DNA of 64,000 nt from a virus (IMGVR_UViG_3300045988_183636); one strand, 5' to 3'; shown: positions 6,173 to 46,001, counted from the first letter of the stretch. Notes: generated by a model not told the origin, from the sequence alone. Translations and numbers: made by a program.

Positions 6173-6227
6173 GCGTATGCGAAAGAGTTCCTTTTTTAGA
6201 GGGGGACTCTTTTTTTTGTTTCATATT

Positions 6228-8070: not shown

Positions 8071-8103
8071 AAAGGGTTCGTCTGATGGCGGACTCTTTTT
8101 TTT
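8071..8103 (+). terminator. rho-independent terminator (identical copy at 10602..10634)
   Basis: aaagggttcgtctgatggcggactcttttttttt. Confidence 0.65.
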
Positions 8104-8731: not shown

Positions 8732-9994
8732 ATGCGGAACATGAAACACATGACATATGTGATCGGTATAAAAGTACGTATATTTCCGTCTACTGTCCAG
8801 AAACGGATCATTGCAAAGAATGACGGAGTGACACGCTTTATTTACAACCGTCTGGTTGCACGCGATCGTGAACTGCACAGCCTGCAGAAAGTGCAGATAT
8901 ACTGCGAGCCTGTTGCCAGCCGCATAGACTACCTCAAGTCACTCGGCACGGATCTGTCTGACTTTAAAGCTGCATATCCATTCCTTGAAGATCCGGAGAT
9001 TGATTCCCTTGCCATTGCCAATGCAAAACAGAATTACCTTGCGGCATGGAAGAACTTCCGGAAGGTTCCAGGCACATCCATGCCTGTATTCCATAAGAAA
9101 TGGTATGGCAAAAGCTACCAGACAAACTGCCAGTATGCATCAGGGGTCACCCGCATGGATAAAGGCAGCGTACGCCTTCTGGATGACAGACATCTCAAGA
9201 TCCCGAAACTCGGGTCTGTAAAGTTTGCTGGGTCTGGTATGCTGCAGAAGATTTTCAAACGCACCTGCGAAACAAGAATCGGGACGGTTACGGTATCCAT
9301 GGATAACTGCGGGGATTACTATGTCTCCCTGCAGGCAGGTTCTGTATGTCCGTTCCACAAAGCACTCCCGGACACCGGGGATGGTGTCGGCATTGATGTA
9401 AACATCAAGAACCTTTACACCGATTCCAACGGTCAGGAGGCAGATAATCCTAAGTTTTACACAAAAGGACAGAAGAAACTCGCCAAGGCACAAAAGAAAC
9501 TTGCCCGGAGGAAAGAACGTGCCATAAAGGAAGGACGCTCCATCTATGAGTCGAAAAACTACCAAAAGCAGCGCCTGAAAGTGGCAAGGCTCTGTCGCAC
9601 AATTGCAAGACGCAGGGAAGATTACCTTGATGTCCAGAGCAAACACTTAGTCGAAAGCCAAGACTATATATTTGCAGAGGATATCAAGACAAAGAACCTG
9701 CTGAAGAACCATAAGCTTGCAAAAGCGATCGCTGACGTCGCGTGGAGGATGTTCCTTTCCAAAGTCTCCTACAAGTGTGACTTCTATGGCAGGCTTTTTG
9801 GAAAGGTGCCGTCAAAGAACACGACACAGACATGCAGCAGCTGCGGCCATGTGATGAAAGACAGTGAACATCTCGATCTGAATATCCGTGAATGGACTTG
9901 TCCGGAATGCGGCATGCATCATAACAGGGATGAGAACTCTGCAGTCAACATAAAAAATCTCGGGAAGATGATCTACCTTCCCGAGACTGTGTAA
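8732..9994 (+). CDS. tnpB: IS605 TnpB (OrfB, RuvC-like RNA-guided nuclease family)
   Basis: C-terminal zinc finger CSSCGH...CPECG..RDENSAVNI and overall OrfB architecture. Confidence 0.75.
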   Translation: MRNMKHMTYVIGIKVRIFPSTVQKRIIAKNDGVTRFIYNRLVARDRELHSLQKVQIYCEPVASRIDYLKSLGTDLSDFKAAYPFLEDPEIDSLAIANAKQNYLAAWKNFRKVPGTSMPVFHKKWYGKSYQTNCQYASGVTRMDKGSVRLLDDRHLKIPKLGSVKFAGSGMLQKIFKRTCETRIGTVTVSMDNCGDYYVSLQAGSVCPFHKALPDTGDGVGIDVNIKNLYTDSNGQEADNPKFYTKGQKKLAKAQKKLARRKERAIKEGRSIYESKNYQKQRLKVARLCRTIARRREDYLDVQSKHLVESQDYIFAEDIKTKNLLKNHKLAKAIADVAWRMFLSKVSYKCDFYGRLFGKVPSKNTTQTCSSCGHVMKDSEHLDLNIREWTCPECGMHHNRDENSAVNIKNLGKMIYLPETV

Positions 9995-21787: not shown

Positions 21788-24091
21788 ATGAATCAGAATA
21801 AGAAGATAGCAGAGAAAAAATCAAGACCATACCAGCAGGAATGCATTGATAAGGTAGACAGCTTAAAAGAAGGAAGATTCCTGATTGCTCTTGCAACAGG
21901 GCTTGGGAAGACATGGATCTTCTCCCACTTTAAGAGATACGGAAGGGTACTTATTCTTTCACACAGGGATGAACTGGTCAACCAGCCGAGACGGTATTTC
22001 GACTGTAGTTTTGGCGTAGAAAAGGCAGAAAACCATTCCAATGGGGAAGAGGTAGTATCTGCGAGTGTTCAGACACTCAGCCATGACTCCCGTCTTAAGC
22101 AGTATAAGCCGGACGATTTCCACACGATCATCATTGATGAGGCGCACCACGCTGCCGCACCATCCTATAAGAAGATCTTAAATTATTTTTCCGGCGCTAA
22201 GCGTGTAATCGGTGTCACGGCAACTCCGAAGCGTGGCGACAACGTCCGGTTAGATGACGTTTTTAACGAGATTATTTATGCAAAGGATCTTCGTTGGGGG
22301 ATTAAAAATAAATATTTAAGTCCGGTGCACTGCCGGGAGGTCCGTGCAAAATATTCCCTGAAAGGCGTAAAAAAATCTATGGGGGATTTTAATGTATCCG
22401 ATTTGGACGGTTGTATTACGGAAGAAGCTGTAATAAGTGTTGCAAAAGTTCTTACAGACTGTCTCCAGGAGAATCGGCATATTCTTATTTATTGTACTAC
22501 TGTCAGAACCTGTAATTTCCTGAAGGCAGTAGTTGACAAACTGCTCCCGGAAAAAGAACGTGGCAGTGTTGCTGTTTTATCAGGGAAAACACAGGAAGAA
22601 GATAGAAAAAATATGCTTGATGGTTTTATGAACGGGAGTGTCCGCGCCATTATTAACTGCATGGTTTTAACAGAAGGTACAGATCTTCCTATTGCGGATA
22701 CCATTATCAACTTCCGGCCGACGTGCAACGCGTCTTTGTATCAGCAGATCATCGGAAGAGGAACCCGGCTCTATGAAGGTAAGGAAAACTGTTTATGCAT
22801 TGATATTCTTCCAGATGATGGCAGCGGGACAAGAAATCTGTGTACAGCTCTTACTCTTTTTGGTATAGATGCAAAACTTCTTGGAAAGAAACAGTCTCGA
22901 ATGCTTGAAGGTGAGATTGATCCGCTTGAGATTAGCGATGAAATTGCAGGACGATTTGCAGAACTTACAAAGGCGTATGAATATCGGTTGGAGCAGGTTA
23001 ATCGCTTTGTGCAGGAGCAGGAAGAAATTATATCTTCTGCGCGGAAGAAACCACATGCAGATTTAAGCGACCTTGCGCATGCAGTAGATAAATATAATTC
23101 AAAGAAAATGGATGAATTCCAAAATGATTATGATTTTCTTGGAATGGATTACTCACTTATGCCGGATACGGAACATCGTTATTGTATCAAACCTACATGG
23201 AATGACCATATTTACCTTGCTGATCCAGATGTTATGGGTAATACAACAGTTACGTTTGATCTTACTGCCAGTGTCGGGAAATATTATATCGGTGAAATGA
23301 AAATGCAGGATGCAATTTCATTTGTTCATGATTTTTGTATGGTATCTCCAGATTATATGAAATATTCCTGGAACGTGGCATTACAAGATGAATGGGGGAA
23401 AATAAAAGCAACTGAAAATCAAATTGGACGTCTTATGAATGAGTATGACGGGTTTCACAAAGGAAATATTAACAAACTTCAAGCATCCAGACTGATTGAT
23501 CTTGCCTCTCGTATTTCGAAGATGAAGGCAGAGGGGAAAATGATGCTTATTACACCAAGAATGCAGGAAAAAACAATTGATAAAAAAAAGAAAATGTTTA
23601 AGGAAATACTCGAAAAGGAACTGAGGGCAAAAGAGCAGGGGCGTAGTGAGTTTGGAGAATTCCAGTCGAAAATCTTTGCTTTGGCAGAAAAAAAGAAAAA
23701 AGACGAAGAGAAATTAAAGAACCAAAAGCCTTTGGAAGAAGAAATGCTCGAAAATGGGGCGATTACAGTTAATATTGCTGTTTTTAGTTCAAAAAAAACA
23801 GCAAGCGATGCGCAGATAAAATTTCTTGGTAATTTAAAAGATAAATTAAAAAACAGAGGAGTGGCTGTCGATAAAAAAATTCCTTATATAGGAATGGGAG
23901 CAGAAGAGGCAAGTGTATATATTACTATATTAAAAACGCTTGTAGATCGTAACGTAGACCTTATAAAATATGGTAAAAAAATTTATTTTAATCCAAATAC
24001 AATCATGAGTGTTGTATTAAAACTAAAGGACACTTCATCCAGAGAAATTAAATGTTGTATCCCGTTCGAAAAAATAGAAGAATTGAGATAA
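21788..24091 (+). CDS. SF2 DEAH-box helicase (ResIII-like) with a long Lys-rich C-terminal extension
   Basis: motif I ALATGLGKT, motif II DEAHH, motif III VTATP, motif VI QIIGRGTR; no HD nuclease domain. Confidence 0.75.
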   Translation: MNQNKKIAEKKSRPYQQECIDKVDSLKEGRFLIALATGLGKTWIFSHFKRYGRVLILSHRDELVNQPRRYFDCSFGVEKAENHSNGEEVVSASVQTLSHDSRLKQYKPDDFHTIIIDEAHHAAAPSYKKILNYFSGAKRVIGVTATPKRGDNVRLDDVFNEIIYAKDLRWGIKNKYLSPVHCREVRAKYSLKGVKKSMGDFNVSDLDGCITEEAVISVAKVLTDCLQENRHILIYCTTVRTCNFLKAVVDKLLPEKERGSVAVLSGKTQEEDRKNMLDGFMNGSVRAIINCMVLTEGTDLPIADTIINFRPTCNASLYQQIIGRGTRLYEGKENCLCIDILPDDGSGTRNLCTALTLFGIDAKLLGKKQSRMLEGEIDPLEISDEIAGRFAELTKAYEYRLEQVNRFVQEQEEIISSARKKPHADLSDLAHAVDKYNSKKMDEFQNDYDFLGMDYSLMPDTEHRYCIKPTWNDHIYLADPDVMGNTTVTFDLTASVGKYYIGEMKMQDAISFVHDFCMVSPDYMKYSWNVALQDEWGKIKATENQIGRLMNEYDGFHKGNINKLQASRLIDLASRISKMKAEGKMMLITPRMQEKTIDKKKKMFKEILEKELRAKEQGRSEFGEFQSKIFALAEKKKKDEEKLKNQKPLEEEMLENGAITVNIAVFSSKKTASDAQIKFLGNLKDKLKNRGVAVDKKIPYIGMGAEEASVYITILKTLVDRNVDLIKYGKKIYFNPNTIMSVVLKLKDTSSREIKCCIPFEKIEELR

Positions 24092-24265: not shown

Positions 24266-24499
24266 GTTGCACCACGCAAGGGTGCAGGGGTGAAATATTA
24301 TACTGAATCGTCGCTGCCTGCATAGATATAGTTGCATCCCTTATGGGATGTATGGGTTGAAATTCAATAGAAACAGATGCATTCGGAGGTGTTACAAGTT
24401 GCACCCCCGCAAGGGGTGCATGGGTTGAAAATAAGAAATGGTAGGAAGGAATTCAGATATGAACATTAGTTGCATCCCGCAAGGGTGCAGGGGTGAAGT
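24266..24499 (+). CRISPR. CRISPR mini-array 1 (type I-C-like repeats, 4 divergent repeats, 3 spacers)
   Basis: GTTGCACCACGCAAGGGTGCAGGGGTGAAAT / GTTGCATCCCTTATGGGATGTATGGGTTGAAAT / GTTGCACCCCCGCAAGGGGTGCATGGGTTGAAAAT / GTTGCATCCCGCAAGGGTGCAGGGGTGAAGT; spacer 2 is shared with array 4. Confidence 0.7.
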
Positions 24500-25580: not shown

Positions 25581-25913
25581 ATGTCAAAGAAAAAAATATC
25601 AAAAAAGAAAAATGTATTAAAGGTGTTATGGAATGAGTGTATAACATTCAAGGTGTTAATTTTTATCATAGCATATGTAGTGCTTGCGTTTATTAATATG
25701 CCATTTGAAAAATGGCTCTCACTTTATTTCGAATGGGAAAAATTAAAGGATTATCAAGAAGTATTCATGGAGGAGATAACATTATTAGTAATTCTCCCTC
25801 TCATGGAGATAGCTGCTGTTGCATTAATTTGTTTTATTATCTATGAGTTTTTTTGCTCTGTCAGTAAGATGATTGCATCTGATGAAGTAATTTCGATTGA
25901 AAAGGAAGAATGA
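25581..25913 (+). CDS. membrane protein, N-terminal-domain-only paralog of 24659/46072
   Basis: MSKKKISKKKNVLKVLWNEC.. aligns with the 46072 N-terminus. Confidence 0.55.
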   Translation: MSKKKISKKKNVLKVLWNECITFKVLIFIIAYVVLAFINMPFEKWLSLYFEWEKLKDYQEVFMEEITLLVILPLMEIAAVALICFIIYEFFCSVSKMIASDEVISIEKEE

Positions 25914-26151: not shown

Positions 26152-26408
26152 AGCTATGACAATATTAAATTTTATCATTGAGTGTTGGAAGAATTCTTGC
26201 GACGAAAAAATCAAAAGGAATTATGTTGAATCCCTTGCTAAAGTGGCGGTTTCAGTGGCCATCATTATTATATCTGTTTTATTATATTTGCACATATGAA
26301 ATGTATAACGGAAATGTATATTTTGGGGGAGGAGGGGTAAGTACAAACATAATTTTTAAAAAAGTAGCGCAAAGAAAGAATTCACTAATGCAGAAGGGGC
26401 GTAACAAT

Positions 26409-28231
26409 ATGATCAACGGAGAATTAGTTGTAGATAATTTTGCGGGCGGAGGAGGAGCTTCCACAGGAATTGAACTTGCTACCGGATACAGCGTAGACAT
26501 AGCTATTAACCATGATCCGGAGGCCATTAAGATGCATAAAGTAAATCATCCCAATACAAAACACTATTGTGAAAACGTATGGGAGGTTGATCCAGTAAAA
26601 GCCTGCAAGGGGCACCCTGTCGGTCTTGCATGGTTTTCTCCGGACTGTAAGCATTTTTCCAAGGCCAAGGGGGGAAACCGGTAGAAAAGAATATTCGCGG
26701 TCTTGCGTGGGTTGTGCTTAAATGGGCGGCACTTGTCAGACCAAGAGTTATCATGCTTGAAAATGTGGAAGAATTTCAGACATGGGGACCATGTATTCCT
26801 ATCAGGGATAAAGATACAGGACGCGTTATTGTCAGCATGGTAGGAAGGCATGACAGAGAGAAGAACGAGCCGCGTACGAGGGTTGCAGATCCAGGAGAAG
26901 TTGTTCCTGTGGATCGCCAGATATTCCAACCAGATCCTAAAAGGAGCGGCCAGACATACAAAAAATGGAGAAAGCAGCTAGAAGCACTTGGATATGAGAT
27001 AGATACAAAGGAACTTGTAGCAGCTGATTATGGCGCACCTACTATGAGAAAGAGATTCTTTATGATTGCACGGTGTGATGGCAAGCCGATTGTCTGGCCG
27101 GAACCAACACATGGACCGGCAGATAGTGAAGAGGTAAAGGCAGGACTGTTAAAACCATACGTTGGAGCGTATACGCAATTGGATTTTTCTCTTCCTTGCC
27201 CGAGCATATTTGATACGGCAGAGGAAATCAAAAGGAAATATGGAATACGCGCTGTACGTCCATTGGCGCAGAAAACAATGGATCGAATCGCAAGAGGATT
27301 GAAAAAGTTCGTATTAGACAATCCGGAGCCGTTTATTATCCAATGCAATCATGGTGGAGAGCGTAGACAAAACGACATCAAAGAGCCTTTACCTACTATT
27401 ACTGGAAAACACGGATATGGAATTGTGGAACCTAAGATTGTTCCATATATGGGAACCAATACAACAAATCATCCAGGTGGAAATTGTAAAAATCCTATAC
27501 ATACAATTACAACAGGAAATCAACAGTGCCTTATCAGCCCAACGCTGATTCAGTATCATTCCGAAACATCGAAGGATGAAGTCAGAGGCCAATCGATTGA
27601 AGATCCGATAATGACCGTGGATGGTTCGAACCGATACGGATTGGTCACGTCGTTTCTACATAAATATTATGACGGAGGATACACTGGAGCTGGTGATACT
27701 GTCGAAAATCCGTTACCGACAGTAACATCCTGGGATCATAACAGTCTGTGTGCAGTTAATCTGATCCAAATGAATAATCATTGCGATGGAAGGGACGTGA
27801 AGGAGCCAATTCCAACAATCACAGCAGGCGATGGTCATTTCGGAGAGGTTAGAGCATTTCTGATCAAGTATTATGGTCAGGGAACTGGACAGGATGTTAA
27901 GGAACCTTTGGATACGGTTACATCAAGAGATCGATTTGGTTTAGTTACAATTAATGGTACCGACTATAAGATCGTGGATATCGGATTGAGGATGCTTGAA
28001 CCGAAAGAACTGTATGGATGCCAGGGATTTCCAGATGATTACATCATAGACCGCGATTACACAGGGAAAAAATACCCAAGAAGCGAGCAGGTACGCAGGT
28101 GTGGAAATGCTGTATGTCCTCCGATTCCGGCTGCTCTTGTAAAAGCAAATCTTCCGGAATTATGCGTAGCGAAACGCACTGGGAATATGAAAATTCGTGA
28201 GGAACAGACCGGGCAGCTTAGATTTGCATAA
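26409..28231 (+). pseudogene. multispecific C5-cytosine DNA methyltransferase with tandem target-recognition domains, interrupted by a frameshift at a G6 homopolymer (26670..26675)
   Basis: motif I DNFAGGGGAS and motif IV SPDCKHFS in ORF 26178..26684; RGLAW..RP..IMLENVEEF (motif VI) plus repeated P.PT.T TRD-like modules and motif X GNAV in ORF 26714..28231; the two frames join if the run is G7. Confidence 0.75.
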
Positions 28232-28371: not shown

Positions 28372-28830
28372 GTGGTTCAAAATTTTGAGGCGTATGGAGT
28401 TGAAATTACGGTAGAGAAACCAATTGCTGTATGCGTAGCGTGCTCATTTTGTGTAAACATAGATATGGCGGTGGATAAAAATGTTACTCATTTTTGTGAA
28501 ATTCTTGGGAAAGAAATGACTAATCAAGAAGCTGATAATAAACCTTGTTCAGAATGTCCAATTACATATAGAAATAAAGAGTCTTTAAATGAAAAGAAGG
28601 AGAAAGGAAAAATGTTGATAATAAGTATTGTAATTTTATTTATGGGACTTGTATACATGGGGGCTATTGGAGTTGAAACTTTTTCACGCTCATTAATTTT
28701 TATTATGATTTCCATCGTTGAGCTTTTTCTTATCGTGTATGCGGACCGAAAAGATTTTGAAGAAAAAAGAAAACGTGATCATTCCATAACTCAATATGAT
28801 CCGGATGAAGAAACAATAGAAGAGGATTAA
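28372..28830 (+). CDS. hypothetical membrane protein with a Cys-rich N-terminus
   Basis: 152-aa ORF with RBS AAGGAGAG. Confidence 0.5.
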   Translation: MVQNFEAYGVEITVEKPIAVCVACSFCVNIDMAVDKNVTHFCEILGKEMTNQEADNKPCSECPITYRNKESLNEKKEKGKMLIISIVILFMGLVYMGAIGVETFSRSLIFIMISIVELFLIVYADRKDFEEKRKRDHSITQYDPDEETIEED

Positions 28831-37622: not shown

Positions 37623-37728
37623 TTGCATTCCAGTGGAATGCATGGGGTGAAAGAAATAGGCAAATCGCATGACAATTTCTGAAATTAAATTGTTGCGCTC
37701 CCGTGGAGGGGGGCGTATGGATTGAAAT
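37622..37728 (+). CRISPR. CRISPR mini-array 2 (2 divergent I-C-like repeats, 1 spacer)
   Basis: GTTGCATTCCAGTGGAATGCATGGGGTGAAAG ... GTTGCGCTCCCGTGGAGGGGGGCGTATGGATTGAAAT. Confidence 0.55.
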
Positions 37729-38585: not shown

Positions 38586-39314
38586 TTGATGATGGAGAAA
38601 GAAGTAGTATATGTTGCAGAACTGGATTCCGATGTTGATGATGTCGTTGCGGCACATTACTTATTTAACGAGGGTGTGTTAAAGTGTGTAGTATGCGATC
38701 CATATCCAAGAACACCGGAGGGGTTGGCACGAAAGGGAAAGCTGGAAGCGCTTGGCATCGATGTGGTTAAGAAAATGCCACCGGTTGCAAAATATGTGTT
38801 TGTTGGCGGCGCTCTTACGGCTGTTGCTGGCTATATCCGGATGCACCATGTCGACTGGCTGGTAATGAACGGAGGCTTTGTTGGAGCAAATATTGCGACC
38901 TTTGAACTGGATAAGTTCAAGGGGAAGAACACTGTCCGTACCTTCAATTTCAACTGCGATGTTGTGGCTGCAGATACGGTTTTGAAAACTGATGAGAAGC
39001 ATATTTCTCATATTGTTCTTGTCGGAAAAAACGTCTGCCATGACGTCCGAAATACGAAAAATGGTCTCTGGAGTGGCGAGAAATACAAGAAATTGTTCGA
39101 TGAGTACCGGGTTAAGGATGAGAAGCGTCAACACGACTTGCTTGCCTGCCATGAGGGGCTTGCATTTCTGCGGGGAACCAATGCGATCTGTGAGTATGAG
39201 ATGGTAAGACCATACAACACAGGCTTGAATGGCAAGCTGACGCAGTGGGGTAGCACAAAAACCATGGAAACACCATATCGCGAAGTGCTTGCTGCTGTTG
39301 GCTACCAGAATTAA
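38586..39314 (+). CDS. hypothetical protein (possible Rossmann-like fold)
   Basis: RBS TAGGAGGGAATTG; 242 aa; stop abuts CRISPR mini-array 3. Confidence 0.55.
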   Translation: MMMEKEVVYVAELDSDVDDVVAAHYLFNEGVLKCVVCDPYPRTPEGLARKGKLEALGIDVVKKMPPVAKYVFVGGALTAVAGYIRMHHVDWLVMNGGFVGANIATFELDKFKGKNTVRTFNFNCDVVAADTVLKTDEKHISHIVLVGKNVCHDVRNTKNGLWSGEKYKKLFDEYRVKDEKRQHDLLACHEGLAFLRGTNAICEYEMVRPYNTGLNGKLTQWGSTKTMETPYREVLAAVGYQN

Positions 39315-39316
39315 AA

Positions 39317-39420
39317 GCTGCATCATGTGCGGGGGTGTATGGATTGAAATGTCGGAGTATGGGTAAGAATCATATATATTCCTACGTTGTGCTCCTCCCG
39401 GTTGGTGCACGGGTTGAAAT
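39317..39420 (+). CRISPR. CRISPR mini-array 3 (2 divergent repeats, 1 spacer)
   Basis: GCTGCATCATGTGCGGGGGTGTATGGATTGAAAT ... GTTGTGCTCCTCCCGGTTGGTGCACGGGTTGAAAT. Confidence 0.5.
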
Positions 39421-41011: not shown

Positions 41012-41230
41012 GTTGCGCCCCATTGGGTGCATGGGTTGAAATCTTTATGACCTTCTGAAAAGTGAGGGCATCTTAGTTGCACCCCCGCAAGGGATGTATG
41101 GGTTGAAATTCAATAGAAACAGATGCATTCGAAGGCGTTACAAGTTGCACCCCGCGAGGGGTGTATGGGTTGAAATTGCAGAAAGCTCAGGATTGGAAGG
41201 TTGCATCCTATGGGATGCATGGATTGAAAC
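41012..41230 (+). CRISPR. CRISPR mini-array 4 (4 divergent repeats, 3 spacers; spacer 2 is almost identical to array-1 spacer 2)
   Basis: GTTGCGCCCCATTGGGTGCATGGGTTGAAAT / GTTGCACCCCCGCAAGGGATGTATGGGTTGAAAT / GTTGCACCCCGCGAGGGGTGTATGGGTTGAAAT / GTTGCATCCTATGGGATGCATGGATTGAAAC. Confidence 0.65.
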
Positions 41231-41715: not shown

Positions 41716-42390
41716 ATGGAAAAAGAAAAAATGGGAGTGAAACTAAAAGTCTGGGGAGATTACGCATTGTTCACCAGACCAGAACTGAAAACTGAACGGT
41801 ATACATACGATGTGATGACACCGTCGGCGGCTAGAGGAATTCTGGAATCTATCTACTGGCATCCGGGACTTCGGTGGTATGTAGACAAGATTCATGTATT
41901 AAATCCGATTGCCACTACGAGCGTGAGAAGAAATGAACTTCTCAGTAAGATACCAAAGTCAAATATGCTGCAGGCATACAACGGCGGGGATGTGAAACTG
42001 TATAACTCGTCAAGAGACGATATTATCCAGAGGGCATCTGTTATTCTCCGGGATGTCTGCTATGTGATTGAGGCGCATTTTGAAATGACAGGGAAAGCGA
42101 GCCCAACAGACAGCCCGGCAAAGTTTATAAGTATCTTTAACAACAGGGCAAGAAAAGGGGCATGTTATTCGATGCCGTATTTTGGTGTAAGGGAATTCCC
42201 GGCACACTTTGAACTCTGCGAAGGAGATGAAAAGATCCCATCCTACTATGAAGGACTTCCGGATAAAGATCTCGGGCTGATGCTTTATGATCTGGATTAC
42301 TCCTGCGGTAGAGATATCCAGCCAATGTATTATCATGCGATTATGAAAAACGGCGTTATTGACGTTGGGAACAGTGAGGTGCTTCGATGA
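41716..42390 (+). CDS. cas5: Cas5c (Cas5d) of type I-C CRISPR-Cas
   Basis: KLKVWGDYALFTRPELKTERYTYDVMTPSAARGILESIYWHP matches the Cas5d N-terminal signature; start may be the second ATG at 41731. Confidence 0.8.
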   Translation: MEKEKMGVKLKVWGDYALFTRPELKTERYTYDVMTPSAARGILESIYWHPGLRWYVDKIHVLNPIATTSVRRNELLSKIPKSNMLQAYNGGDVKLYNSSRDDIIQRASVILRDVCYVIEAHFEMTGKASPTDSPAKFISIFNNRARKGACYSMPYFGVREFPAHFELCEGDEKIPSYYEGLPDKDLGLMLYDLDYSCGRDIQPMYYHAIMKNGVIDVGNSEVLR

Positions 42391-44126
42391 TCCTTCAGTC
42401 ACTTGTGAAATTATATGAAACACTTGCGGATCAGGGAAAAGTGTCCCGTCCTGGCTGGTGTAATGCAAAGGTATCCTATGCGGTGGTTTTAAACCATGAT
42501 GGGACGATTAAAGATATTGTTTCCGTGAAACAGAAAGTGAAGAGAGGAAAGAAGACTGTTGAAATTCCAATAATTATGCAGGTTCCAGAGATGGTCACCC
42601 GCGCTAACAACATTGCCTCCAGCTTTCTCTGCGAAAATGCAAAGTATCTCTTTGGGATTGACGAAAAGATGAGTTTGCGTACACTGGAATGTTTTAAGGC
42701 GGCAAAGAAAAAACATCTTGATATTCTTGATGTTGTGGATTCACCTGTAGCACAGACGGTATGTAACTTTTTCCGTTCATGGGATCCGGAACAGGCGTTG
42801 GATCAACCGGCTGTTGCAAAACTTGCAGAAGAGTTTTATAAAGGCGGAAACCTCGTTTTTGAAGTAGATGGGGAATATGTGCATGATAATGAAGAAGTCC
42901 GCAGGGCATGGATGGATTACAGCAGTGTACCATATGAAATGGTAACTGGAAGATGCCTTATTACTGGAGAGGAAGCGGAGATTGCCCGCACGCACGGGAA
43001 AATCAAAGGAGTTCCGGGAGCACAGTCATCTGGCGCGTCGCTTGTATCATTTAACGGAGCATCCCTTGAGTCTTATGAAAAAACACAGAGCTACAACGCG
43101 CCGATTAGCACCTATGCGGCGTATGCATATGTGACCGCGCTGAATTACTTGCTTTCTACGGACGGGTATCACAGCAAGGTAGGAGGTTCCATGGTGGTTT
43201 TCTGGACAGATTCCGGGGATGTGGATGATGTGAGCAGACTGCGGAAGATGATGGGAAGCATCAATGAAAAGGATCACACCCCTACAGATACGGATGAAAA
43301 ACTGTACGTCCTCTGCCTTGCACCAAATGCCGGGCGAATTGCAGTCCGGTTCTTCTATGAGGATGCGATCGGGGTAATCTGGGAAAACCTGTCCGAACAT
43401 GCCAGTCGGATGAAGATTGTAAAACCAGTATTTGAGGATCAAGAATTTATCAATATCTGGCAGATGCTCATGGAGACAGTCAACCAGAATCTTACAGATA
43501 AAACACCTGTCCCGCATATGTCAGCAATGACGTTACAGTCAGTCATTTCGGATACACCGTATCCGCAGAGTCTGTATGCAGGTGTGTTATCTCGTATCCG
43601 CGCGGAGCACAAAGGTGTTACTTACAGAAAAGCATCGATTATTAAAGCTTTTTTAATAAAGAACTACAAATGGGAGGAAGGAAAAAATATGGAAGCATTA
43701 AATGAAGGCTGTAAGGATCGGGCATATATCCTTGGAAGACTGTTTGCGGTTATGGAAAAGGCACAGAAAGAAGCAGTTGGCAATATCAACCAGACAATTT
43801 GTGATAAGTTTTACAATTCCGCGTGCACAACACCAAGATCGATCTTTCCAGTACTGATCAGGCTATCTAACAGTCATTTAAGTAAGTTGAAACGGACAAA
43901 ACCGGGGAGAGGATATTATTTTACAGCTAAAATGCAGGATTTAATGGATAAAATTCCGGTAACAGATGATGATCCGGGATTCCCGCGGCGTTTCTCATAT
44001 GAGGATCAGGGTAAGTTTGCACTTGGTTATTATCATCAGATGCGGGCGGAATATACAAGCAGTAAGTTAAAAGATAATGATTCAGAAGGTGATCAGACAA
44101 ATGCAGAGAATATGGAGGAAAACTAA
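42387..44126 (+). CDS. cas8c: Cas8c (Csd1) large subunit, type I-C
   Basis: MILQSLVKLYETLADQGKV... N-terminus; 579 aa; 4-nt overlap with cas5; position between cas5 and cas7. Confidence 0.75.
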   Translation: MILQSLVKLYETLADQGKVSRPGWCNAKVSYAVVLNHDGTIKDIVSVKQKVKRGKKTVEIPIIMQVPEMVTRANNIASSFLCENAKYLFGIDEKMSLRTLECFKAAKKKHLDILDVVDSPVAQTVCNFFRSWDPEQALDQPAVAKLAEEFYKGGNLVFEVDGEYVHDNEEVRRAWMDYSSVPYEMVTGRCLITGEEAEIARTHGKIKGVPGAQSSGASLVSFNGASLESYEKTQSYNAPISTYAAYAYVTALNYLLSTDGYHSKVGGSMVVFWTDSGDVDDVSRLRKMMGSINEKDHTPTDTDEKLYVLCLAPNAGRIAVRFFYEDAIGVIWENLSEHASRMKIVKPVFEDQEFINIWQMLMETVNQNLTDKTPVPHMSAMTLQSVISDTPYPQSLYAGVLSRIRAEHKGVTYRKASIIKAFLIKNYKWEEGKNMEALNEGCKDRAYILGRLFAVMEKAQKEAVGNINQTICDKFYNSACTTPRSIFPVLIRLSNSHLSKLKRTKPGRGYYFTAKMQDLMDKIPVTDDDPGFPRRFSYEDQGKFALGYYHQMRAEYTSSKLKDNDSEGDQTNAENMEEN

Positions 44127-45039
44127 GATGAGCACACCAATTAAGAACAGATATGATTTCGTAGTATTATTCGACGTAGAGAATGGAAATCCGAACGGTG
44201 ATCCGGATGCCGGAAATATGCCGAGAGTTGATCCAGAGACTGGCATCGGGCTTGTGACAGATGCCTGCATAAAGCGCAAGATCCGTAATTATGTGGAAAC
44301 TGTAAAAGAAGATGCAGCCGGGTTCAAGATCTATATTAAAGAGGGGGTCCCGCTGAACCGGAGTGACCTTAAGGCAGTCGAAAGTCTTGGTATTGACGTC
44401 GGTGACGACAAAAATGCACTTGAAGATGTAAAGAAGCTGAAAAAGACAGATGAAGATGTGGATCTTAAGCTCCGTGACTATATGTGTAGTAATTTCTATG
44501 ATATCCGTACATTTGGTGCTGTCTTGACTACCTTTACAAAGGCGGCATTAAACTGTGGGCAGGTACGTGGCCCGGTACAGATTGGTTTTGCAAAAAGTAT
44601 TGATCCTGTTTTCAGCCAGGATATTACTGTAACCAGAGTTGCAATCACAACGGAAAAGGATGCGGAAAAGAAAAATACAGAAATGGGAAGAAAGAGTATT
44701 ATTCCTTATGGACTTTACCGTGTGGAGGGATATATTTCTGCTAATCTTGCCCGTAAGACCACCGGCTTTTCTGAAGACGATCTGGAACTGCTTTGGGAAG
44801 CAATCATTAACATGTTTGAGAATGACCATTCCGCAGCACGCGGGAAGATGGCAGTGCGTGAGCTCATCGTATTCAAGCATAACAGCGAGCTTGGCAATTG
44901 TCCATCGTACAAACTGTTTGAAACTGTTGATGTTAAGAAGAATGATGGTGTTGAGTTTCCTCGTAAATATTCCGATTATGCAGTGACTATTCATGAGGAT
45001 GCGATTCCGGATGGCGTGACAATGACTCGCAAAATCTAA
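44127..45039 (+). CDS. cas7: Cas7c (Csd2) backbone subunit, type I-C
   Basis: RYDFVVLFDVENGNPNGDPDAGNMPR signature; RBS GGAGGAAAAC before ATG 44127 (the ORF-track start at 44077 is inside cas8). Confidence 0.8.
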
Positions 45040-45289
45040 AAAGATTTCCAGAGATTACAAGGCAACCCGCGTTTTGCGGGCTGCATCTGCTTGGGTTATG
45101 CCGAAATGTAGAATTCCGGTGCGAACTGAAAGCTTACATAGCTTCTCTGGGAGACTCGCACCGGAAATGGAGGTATTAGTGTACAAAAAGAACACAAAAC
45201 CCAACTGTATAAGGCCGTTTGAGAACAATTAATTAGAGGAATTGTTTATATTTTGGCGATCGGGAGAGTTGTTTCTGTTCACTTTTACA

Positions 45290-46001
45290 GCTACGCCCCA
45301 TGGAGGGGCGTATGGATTGAAAATACCGCAACAATTAAAGGCAATGAAAATCTTGTACGCTACGCCCCATGGAGGGGCGTATGGATTGAAAATGATTGTT
45401 ATTGTTTTTTATTCATGGAGAGGAAAGCTACGCCCCATGGAGGGGCGTATGGATTGAAAAGTAAGGTTTCGTCTCGAAGCCTTTATTCTGTTTTGCTGCG
45501 CCCCATGGAGGGGCGTATGGATTGAAATACCAAAATCTTTTGACATTCTTATAAATGGTAACAGCTACGTCTTATGGGGTACGTATGGATTGAAATCATA
45601 ATAATTGTAGAGATCTCAATACAAAATAAAGCTGCGTCTCATGGAATACGTATGGATTGAAATGAAAAGGCGAGTTTGCGAAAGCAGATATTGGAATGTT
45701 GCGTCTCGTGGAGTACGTATGGATTGAAATTCCAACTTTAACTACATAACTATCCTGATAAACTTGCTGCACCCCATGGAGAGTGTATGGATTGAAATTT
45801 AAAAAATCATGGATAACATCTGCGATAAGACGTTGCACCTCGCTAGGGGTGTATGGGTTGAAATTTCCATAATCGGTAGCCAATTATTATCATTAGGTGT
45901 TGCACCCCATAGAGGGTGTATGGATTGAAATTATATAAAAATGATGAATATGTAAAAAAAATAAAAGAGTTACGCTCCATGGAGTGCGTATGGCTTGAAA
46001 C
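45290..46001 (+). CRISPR. main type I-C CRISPR array (11 repeats, 10 spacers), leader-proximal repeats conserved and distal repeats degenerate
   Basis: consensus GCTACGCCCCATGGAGGGGCGTATGGATTGAAAAT; spacers 33-36 nt; the last repeat GTTACGCTCCATGGAGTGCGTATGGCTTGAAAC lies 70 nt before the 46072 CDS. Confidence 0.85.

Follow-up and report, generated by a model that had tools for sequence, protein, structure and literature searches.

The locus analyzed here raises a single question: is a DNA methyltransferase gene that falls into two reading frames at a short run of G residues switched by that run, misread during sequencing, or on its way to being lost? The gene lies on the plus strand at positions 26409..28231 of a stretch of 64,000 nucleotides assigned to a virus (IMGVR_UViG_3300045988_183636; the whole 64-kb stretch is called the window below), and it is a single C5-cytosine DNA methyltransferase gene spread over two frames. 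The original prediction, made from the DNA sequence alone, favored slipped-strand phase variation and named a sequencing error or a dead gene as the alternatives. Our analysis makes it probable that the window carries a genuine out-of-frame (OFF) allele of an orphan C5-cytosine methyltransferase, located on a mobile island of Roseburia faecis-like Lachnospiraceae, and that the break reflects a recurrent, slippage-driven polymorphism in a dispensable gene.

The break coincides with a run of six G residues at 26669..26674, placed at 26670..26675 in the original prediction, with AAA directly 3' of it at 26675..26677 (G6A3; other run states are named in the same way). Only three G6 runs occur in the whole window, and one of them falls exactly on the frame junction of the methyltransferase gene. 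The layout of the open reading frames (ORFs) agreed with the prediction: ORF 26178..26684 ends with ...AKGGNR-stop, ORF 26714..28231 follows in the -1 frame, motifs I and IV precede the break, and motifs VI and X come after it. Repair by one base gave a protein of 607 or 643 aa, depending on the start, that reads ...FSKAKGGKPVEKNIRGLAW... across the junction and is 100% identical over its full length to P0001 (607 aa) and P0004 (643 aa), P0004 alone being represented by 378 contigs and 435 index blocks. Insertion of one G thus fuses the two halves as predicted, but G is not the only base that does so, since an extra A in the G6A3 run leads to the identical protein.

The PF00145 motifs and the core fold identify the product as a C5-cytosine DNA methyltransferase. 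The repaired protein matched PF00145 with an E value of 6e-24 and carried motifs I, IV, VI, VIII, IX, and X in this order, motif IV being a P-D-C variant. In the AlphaFold model the core (residues 1-310 and 515-590) had predicted local distance difference test (pLDDT) values mostly above 90, and a Foldseek search with the core fold retrieved 3g7u (the methyltransferase of prophage CP-933R), DNMT1, and M.HaeIII with E values of 1e-10 to 1e-12. Some close relatives of P0001 and P0004 are named Roseburia faecis DNA cytosine methyltransferase. Downstream of the break the motifs ENV, RKRFF (motif VIII), RMLEPKEL..QGFPDDY (motif IX region), and GNAVCPP are present, and this 3' part is otherwise intact, matching the C-terminus of P0004 identically. 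What the window lacks is the uninterrupted frame of an active enzyme, as a stop codon at 26682..26684 separates motif IV from motif VI. ATG 26409 is the likely start, judging by GAAGGGG 8-9 nt upstream and by the N-termini of homologues; gene callers have also used ATG 26301 and TTG 26178. The exact-sequence look-up of the 168-aa product starting at this TTG found no record, and a Logan contig (L012) encodes it with one substitution.

If the break were a sequencing or assembly error, the true genome would be in frame, as G6A4 or G7A3. Homopolymers are the commonest site of indel errors, and the window departs by one base only from its nearest intact twin, the locus L004. The G6A3 frameshift is genuine nonetheless. 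The lesion is not a private error because the same allele recurs on at least 35 independent contigs: identical G6A3 sequences were present in many independent assemblies of the short-read type (contigs with SPAdes- or MEGAHIT-style names), including contigs of 30-300 kb, and ten loci from different studies all read G6A3 at the DNA level. In the index of the collection, 61 blocks list the 127-aa product of G6A3, and the NCBI annotation treats the halves as split proteins, WP_417020010.1 and WP_417020009.1. Moreover, no second indel relative to L004 was found across 7.9 kb despite several A8/T8 runs in that segment. The recurrence of the allele across assemblies and the lack of any other indel against this twin make the sequencing error, left as an alternative by the original prediction, very unlikely.

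The simple-sequence run inside the ORF sets the frame: G6A3 is out of frame, whereas G6A4 and G7A3 are in frame (ON). Among 29 sampled loci with the run in frame, 27 had GGGGGGAAAA (G6A4) and two had G7A3 (L005 and L026), L026 being broken at a second run further downstream. Haplogroups that differ from the gene in the window by 44 and 181 substitutions are among the G6A4 loci, and in one relative further removed the run is interrupted (GGGTGGAAAA). G6A4 is the ancestral in-frame state of the run. L004 was identical to the window across 7932 bp, with 0 mismatches and 1 gap, and since this twin reads G6A4, the base lost in the window relative to it is an A. The allele of the window carries this single lesion alone.

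The products of every single-base slip were written out and looked up by exact protein sequence, which disclosed a whole series of OFF alleles. The commonest was the G6A3 allele carried by the window (product ending with ...GGNR), found on 30 contigs with the 127-aa form and on 3 or 5 with a 91-aa form. G5A4 (...GENR) was found on 8 contigs plus 5 or 3 as a 91-aa form; the assignment of these 91-aa forms to the two alleles is incomplete, and their combined total is 8 either way. The +1 product (...GGKTGRKEY...) was found on 16 + 4 contigs, and the DNA behind all +1 alleles was G7A4, never G6A5. G8A3 (...GGETGRK...) and G8A4 (...GGENR, cluster member P0130) were represented by 2 and 3 contigs, respectively, and no product of a -2 slip appeared in the exact look-ups. 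Altogether, with G5A4, G8A3, and G8A4 also verified in the DNA, the verified states comprise G5A4, G6A3, G6A4 (ON), G7A3 (ON), G7A4, G8A3, and G8A4.

These run-length states occur on backgrounds only 0-2 substitutions apart over 3-8 kb. The nearest intact neighbors of the G6A3 alleles are not the same from one allele to another (L004 with 0 differences, L008 with 1, and L027 with 1 over ~4.4 kb, the junction excluded). When haplotypes were assigned to the nearest reference, G6A4, G7A3, G6A3, and G7A4 were all present both in haplogroup A (P0004-type) and in haplogroup B (P0065-type), which differ by 44 substitutions, and on the L005 and L026 backgrounds G7A3, G6A3, and G8A3 were found together. 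Because G6A3 adjoins different intact alleles and the two haplogroups share run states, the run is a natural indel hot spot at which -1 and +1 OFF alleles arose repeatedly. The OFF alleles emerged solely through the exact-product look-ups. Scanning IMG/VR for the junction, a variable gap being allowed, produced 0 matches, a genome scan with one genome per species returned only the interrupted run GGGTGGAAAA in a metagenome-assembled genome of an uncultured Lachnobacterium, and a scan of JGI metagenomes yielded seven G6A4, one G7A3, and one interrupted run, with no OFF allele. Exact-product look-ups of hypothetical slip variants offer a cheap way to separate a one-off lesion from a recurrent one.

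The frequency of breakage at this run was compared with that at other runs of the same island. The methyltransferase run (G6-7/A3-4) was broken on 71 contigs versus at least 1006 intact ones (~6.6%), the denominator being full-length proteins with the same N-terminus among the 120 best matches. In the helicase gene, with 545 intact contigs for each run, there were no slip variants of the G5A4 run at 23394, five of the A8 run at 23582, and three of the A8 run at 23791, for which the A7 product alone was looked up. The G5 run at 28659, in the gene of a 152-aa neighbor with at least 1000 intact contigs, had three slip variants. The neighboring runs were hence broken in less than 1% of contigs, and the enrichment of the methyltransferase run over comparable runs was roughly ten-fold or more.

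The gene is also hit elsewhere. Shortening of an A6 run just ahead of motif X to A5 frameshifts the gene before this motif; A5 was found on 18 + 2 contigs with the first run in frame, and A7 was found on 2 contigs. Of the alleles broken at the first run, 11 (plus 5 close variants) also had A5 and 15 kept A6, so that about half of those for which the entire downstream ORF was looked up are doubly hit. A5 occurs linked to G6A4, G7A3, G6A3, G7A4, and G8A4. The A6 run was broken in ~5% of contigs versus less than 1% for the adjoining A8 runs, and therefore the gene, as well as the run, accounts for the excess. Other inactivating alleles include a nonsense allele (P0126, 161 aa, 8 contigs), a frameshift (P0131), and a deletion in L042. 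The double lesions point to relaxed selection or selection for loss and to ongoing decay rather than to a tuned reversible switch, and dead alleles seem to drift on, as in the probable change of G7A4 to G8A4 on an A5 background.

Three observations made alongside concern the island and the gene family at large. At L014/L033, representing one G6A3 contig, a 1-bp deletion (window equivalent 25848) cuts a 110-aa ORF (25581-25913) to 96 aa, which means that frameshifts happen elsewhere on the island too, at low frequency. The Logan contig L012, also G6A3, has a 63-bp insertion (its positions 301-363, equivalent to 26146/26147 of the window) just upstream of the methyltransferase leader, absent from the window and from all other loci. 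Outside the window, P0139 is a 136-aa N-terminal fragment of a Jekyll-like methyltransferase that reads ...ENVEEFKTWG and then TTWTATPSD; it was present on 167 contigs, including NCBI genomes, and seems to be a different lineage of the methyltransferase family truncated at another site at high frequency.

Could the run nevertheless be a contingency locus? True phase variation would mean reversible and frequent switching within a clone, mixed methylated and unmethylated subpopulations, and selection for the heterogeneity itself, with escape from methyl-dependent restriction or epigenetic regulation as possible benefits. The run does both expand and contract among close relatives, from G5 to G8, and does so on nearly identical backgrounds. 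The in-frame G7A3 on two haplogroups (L005 and L026) might be the footprint of an OFF-to-ON event, as a single compensating slip would produce it from either of the common OFF alleles (from G6A3 by gain of a G, from G7A4 by loss of an A), and the single-lesion allele of the window could in principle revert. A precedent exists in the orphan CpG C5-methyltransferase of Mycoplasma agalactiae, which has a poly(G) run in mid-gene (PMC9465063). Against such a switch speaks the run itself, which in the in-frame alleles has merely 6-7 G and is interrupted in the closest relatives (GGC GGA or GGT GGA), so that nothing shows selection keeping it. Well-studied phase switches rely on longer runs. The G and A residues here are the codons AAG GGG GGA AAA of the conserved KGGK motif, and KGGKP is the commonest form of the loop in 135 family representatives. 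Furthermore, 93% of contigs are ON, the gene is also killed by the second, unrelated run, by nonsense mutation, and by deletions, G7A3 is equally well explained by a synonymous A-to-G substitution, and the intact twin with identical flanks, L004, differs from the window by an A and not by a G. On this evidence we regard true phase variation as unlikely. The part of the original prediction that stands is a C5-methyltransferase gene split by a single-base frameshift at a simple-sequence run, and the polymorphism of run length in both directions is the population signature that slipped-strand mutation should leave; the reading as a classic switch is weakened by the short run, the second lesions, and the decay. 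In its strongest form, that of a working contingency switch in a gut commensal Firmicute, with a mobile, multi-module, and possibly multispecific orphan C5-methyltransferase flipping within Roseburia populations and G7A3 as the scar of a reversion, the idea is slightly less probable still. If true, it would imply mixed methylomes that alter gene expression or the susceptibility to restriction and methyl-dependent defense, that is, an island-borne "phasevarion" in a butyrate producer.

A functional enzyme might also be made from the OFF allele without any change in the DNA, by -1 ribosomal frameshifting, by a P-site slip within G6, or by assembly of the two fragments into a split methyltransferase. 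The heptamer G_GGA_AAC does stand in the right frame two codons ahead of the stop, a P-site slip within G6 would give exactly the wild-type KGGKP at a low level, and no OFF allele is commoner than G6A3. Complementation between fragments has been reported for C5-methyltransferases (PMC3404938). Nothing about the site looks programmed, however, because most homologues (~93%) are simply in one frame and the other OFF alleles, G5A4 and G7A4, lack the heptamer. No stimulatory structure was found either: the 92 nt downstream had a minimum free energy of -20.9 kcal/mol with z = -0.43 versus shuffled sequences. Programmed -1 frameshifting was rejected on these grounds, the two-frame arrangement not being conserved. 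A split enzyme was judged unlikely from the position of the break, which divides the catalytic domain between motifs IV and VI, and from the lack of a convincing ribosome-binding site for the downstream ORF; a product starting with ATG 26753 would begin at motif VI. Continued expression of the OFF allele by any of these means is thus highly improbable.

The preferred explanation remains slippage in a dispensable gene. Replication slippage would have removed one base from GGGGGGAAAA (G6A4 to G6A3) or from a G7A3 intermediate, after which translation would halt behind motif IV, and motifs VI-X together with the target-recognition region would no longer be made. No endonuclease gene adjoins the methyltransferase among the neighboring genes inspected. 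The ResIII/Helicase_C protein encoded 2 kb upstream was considered as a Type III Res partner and rejected, as it matches phage DNA helicase families. The island neighbors comprise a protein with the LPD1 polyvalent-protein domain, a superfamily 2 (SF2) helicase, and a flotillin-like protein, and the gene of P0103, a methyltransferase 96% identical, lies between ParB_N and DUF3991/Toprim genes, which we take to be the context of a conjugative element. Orphan methyltransferases are reportedly among the anti-defense genes of plasmid leading regions (PMC11541004). Since there is no endonuclease, the neighbors are of the mobile-element type, and leading regions carry such orphans, the role of the enzyme is most likely protective methylation, which would shield the DNA of the element from restriction as the element enters a new host. 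In a host where the element is already established, the enzyme might become dispensable or costly, and loss-of-function alleles would persist and then decay further, under relaxed selection or selection for loss.

Several points weigh against this explanation. Contig counts are not independent events, and clonal spread or recombination between island variants could inflate the apparent recurrence. The broken alleles came from exact protein look-ups, a biased way of sampling, and G6A3 may derive from G6A4 or from G7A3. The anti-restriction role and the dispensability are inferred from context. Finally, the variation in run length is known between contigs, and it is mixed lengths within one population that are the hallmark of active switching. 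The positions of the features discussed are collected in Table 1.

Table 1. Features of the methyltransferase gene and its frame junction in the window.
Feature	Position	Strand	Remarks
5' part of methyltransferase gene	26409..26684	+	motifs I and IV; premature TAG at 26682..26684
Motif I, FAGGGG	26439..26456	+	upstream of frameshift
Motif IV, SPDCKHFS	26637..26660	+	upstream of frameshift
Slippery run GGGGGGAAA (G6A3)	26669..26677	+	-1 frameshift site; codons for the conserved K-G-G-K in the loop that follows motif IV
Formal -1 slippery heptamer G_GGA_AAC	26672..26678	+	zero frame of the OFF allele; stop two codons downstream
3' part of methyltransferase gene	26675..28231	+	-1 frame; listed ORF begins with GTG 26714
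Motif VI, ENV	26759..26767	+	in 3' part
Six tandem modules of ~35 aa, each [ED]PxxT[IV][TD]	27347..27973	+	between motifs VIII and IX; resemble target-recognition domains
Second homopolymer hot spot, A6	28067..28072	+	intact in window; just before motif X
Motif X, GNAVCPP	28103..28123	+	in 3' part

The original prediction of about six P.PT.T modules was borne out by six PxxT[IV][TD] modules in the 607-aa protein, at residues 326, 362, 399, 434, 466, and 499. Among 135 complete family representatives the number of modules varied from 0 to 9 per protein and their spacing from 30 to 39 aa, which fits a modular variable region. The AlphaFold pLDDT was 38-60 across residues 313-510, where the modules lie, and the fold there is not confident. 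By analogy with enzymes of Bacillus phages, the methyltransferase may be multispecific.

The surroundings of the gene contain further elements worth recording. Two repeat-spacer-repeat mini-arrays with type I-C-like CRISPR repeats (GTTGCACCCC..GGGGTGTATGGGTTGAAAT) are located at 24326-24432 and 41072-41178 and have nearly the same 33-nt spacer, TCAATAGAAACAGATGCATTCGGAGGTGTTACA. The former lies inside the island, with the helicase gene ~240 bp before it and the methyltransferase gene 1.9 kb downstream. It recurs in every related island locus and might represent a mobile-element mini-array or a solitary-repeat decoy. The latter is situated just upstream of cas5, the first gene of a cas locus at 41716-45960 that appears to contain only cas5 (41716-42390), cas8c/csd1 (42387-44126), and cas7 (44077-45039), followed by a 10-repeat array at ~45285-45960 with repeats degenerating toward the 3' end. 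Solitary repeats are also found near 37690-37728 and 39312-39350. Pfam scans of the ORFs neighboring this locus detected none of cas3, cas1, cas2, and cas4, and the locus may be a Cascade-only, nuclease-less type I-C variant. A gene of the IS605-family OrfB/TnpB type (with a Cas12f1-like TNB domain) occupies 8732-9994. The T8-containing sequence GGCGGACTCTTTTTTTTAT recurs at 8096 and 10625, and shorter variants of the CTCTTTTTTTT type are present at 6210, 20844, and 30278; these repeats look like terminator or element-end motifs.

Several known enzymes invite comparison with the methyltransferase of the window. Multispecific C5-methyltransferases are encoded by Bacillus phages (M.SPRI, M.Phi3TI, M.Rho11sI, and M.H2I), and M.BssHII is a further example; in these enzymes an enlarged variable region between motifs VIII and IX holds tandem short modules with a T-[LIV] dipeptide. 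The present enzyme shares with them this enlarged region of tandem modules with its T-[LIV] dipeptide, the orphan state, and the location on a mobile element, but it is of a different subfamily, with SPDC rather than PCQ in motif IV, a KGGKP loop, and six modules of ~35 aa. Among annotated phage proteins, the cytosine DNA methylase of Roseburia phage Jekyll (VUE37367.1, LR596902.1) is the nearest relative, with the same architecture and ~74% identity at the DNA level across 80% of the gene; it has AAA GGC GGA AAA at the junction, with no G run, and resides in a phage genome and not on an island. A literature search for a Roseburia faecis methyltransferase in a prophage found nothing. With the orphan methyltransferases of conjugative leading regions (PMC11541004) the gene shares the lack of a cognate endonuclease and neighbors of the mobile-element type; in contrast to such regions, the window yielded no identified relaxase, type IV secretion genes, or integrase.

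As regards switching, pathogens such as Mycoplasma, Helicobacter, Neisseria, and Haemophilus offer well-known cases of ON/OFF variation of DNA methyltransferases driven by homopolymers. Few such cases have been described for abundant gut commensals, for which inversion-based switches dominate the literature found, and a preprint on epigenetic phase variation in the gut (PMC11741434) makes no mention of homopolymers or Roseburia. Here public metagenomes alone exposed a full G5-G8 allelic series, all at a single short run of a widespread island gene of Roseburia. The case teaches that a short run in a dispensable gene can look like phase variation in single genomes; if the switching did prove reversible, epigenetic heterogeneity in a butyrate producer would become amenable to study. 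Phasevarions of the Type III mod class in Haemophilus, Neisseria, and Helicobacter (PMC5700931) resemble the present gene in that a frameshift due to repeat length toggles a DNA methyltransferase. They differ in that their Mod proteins are N6-adenine Type III enzymes with long repeats, high switching rates, and demonstrated regulons, whereas for the gene described here, which encodes a C5 enzyme on a mobile island and has a short run, nothing points to a regulon.

Of the known systems, the orphan CpG methyltransferase of Mycoplasma agalactiae with its variable poly(G) run (PMC9465063) comes closest to the present case. In M. agalactiae and M. pulmonis, as here, an orphan C5-methyltransferase gene has its frame set by an in-gene run, poly(G) or poly(GA), located just upstream of conserved catalytic motifs, with -1/+1 variants among strains. 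In the mycoplasmas switching was shown by fragment-length analysis within cultures, whereas the evidence here is polymorphism between samples alone; the Roseburia run, moreover, is a G6-7/A3-4 composite, most of its alleles are ON, and many of the OFF alleles are further damaged.

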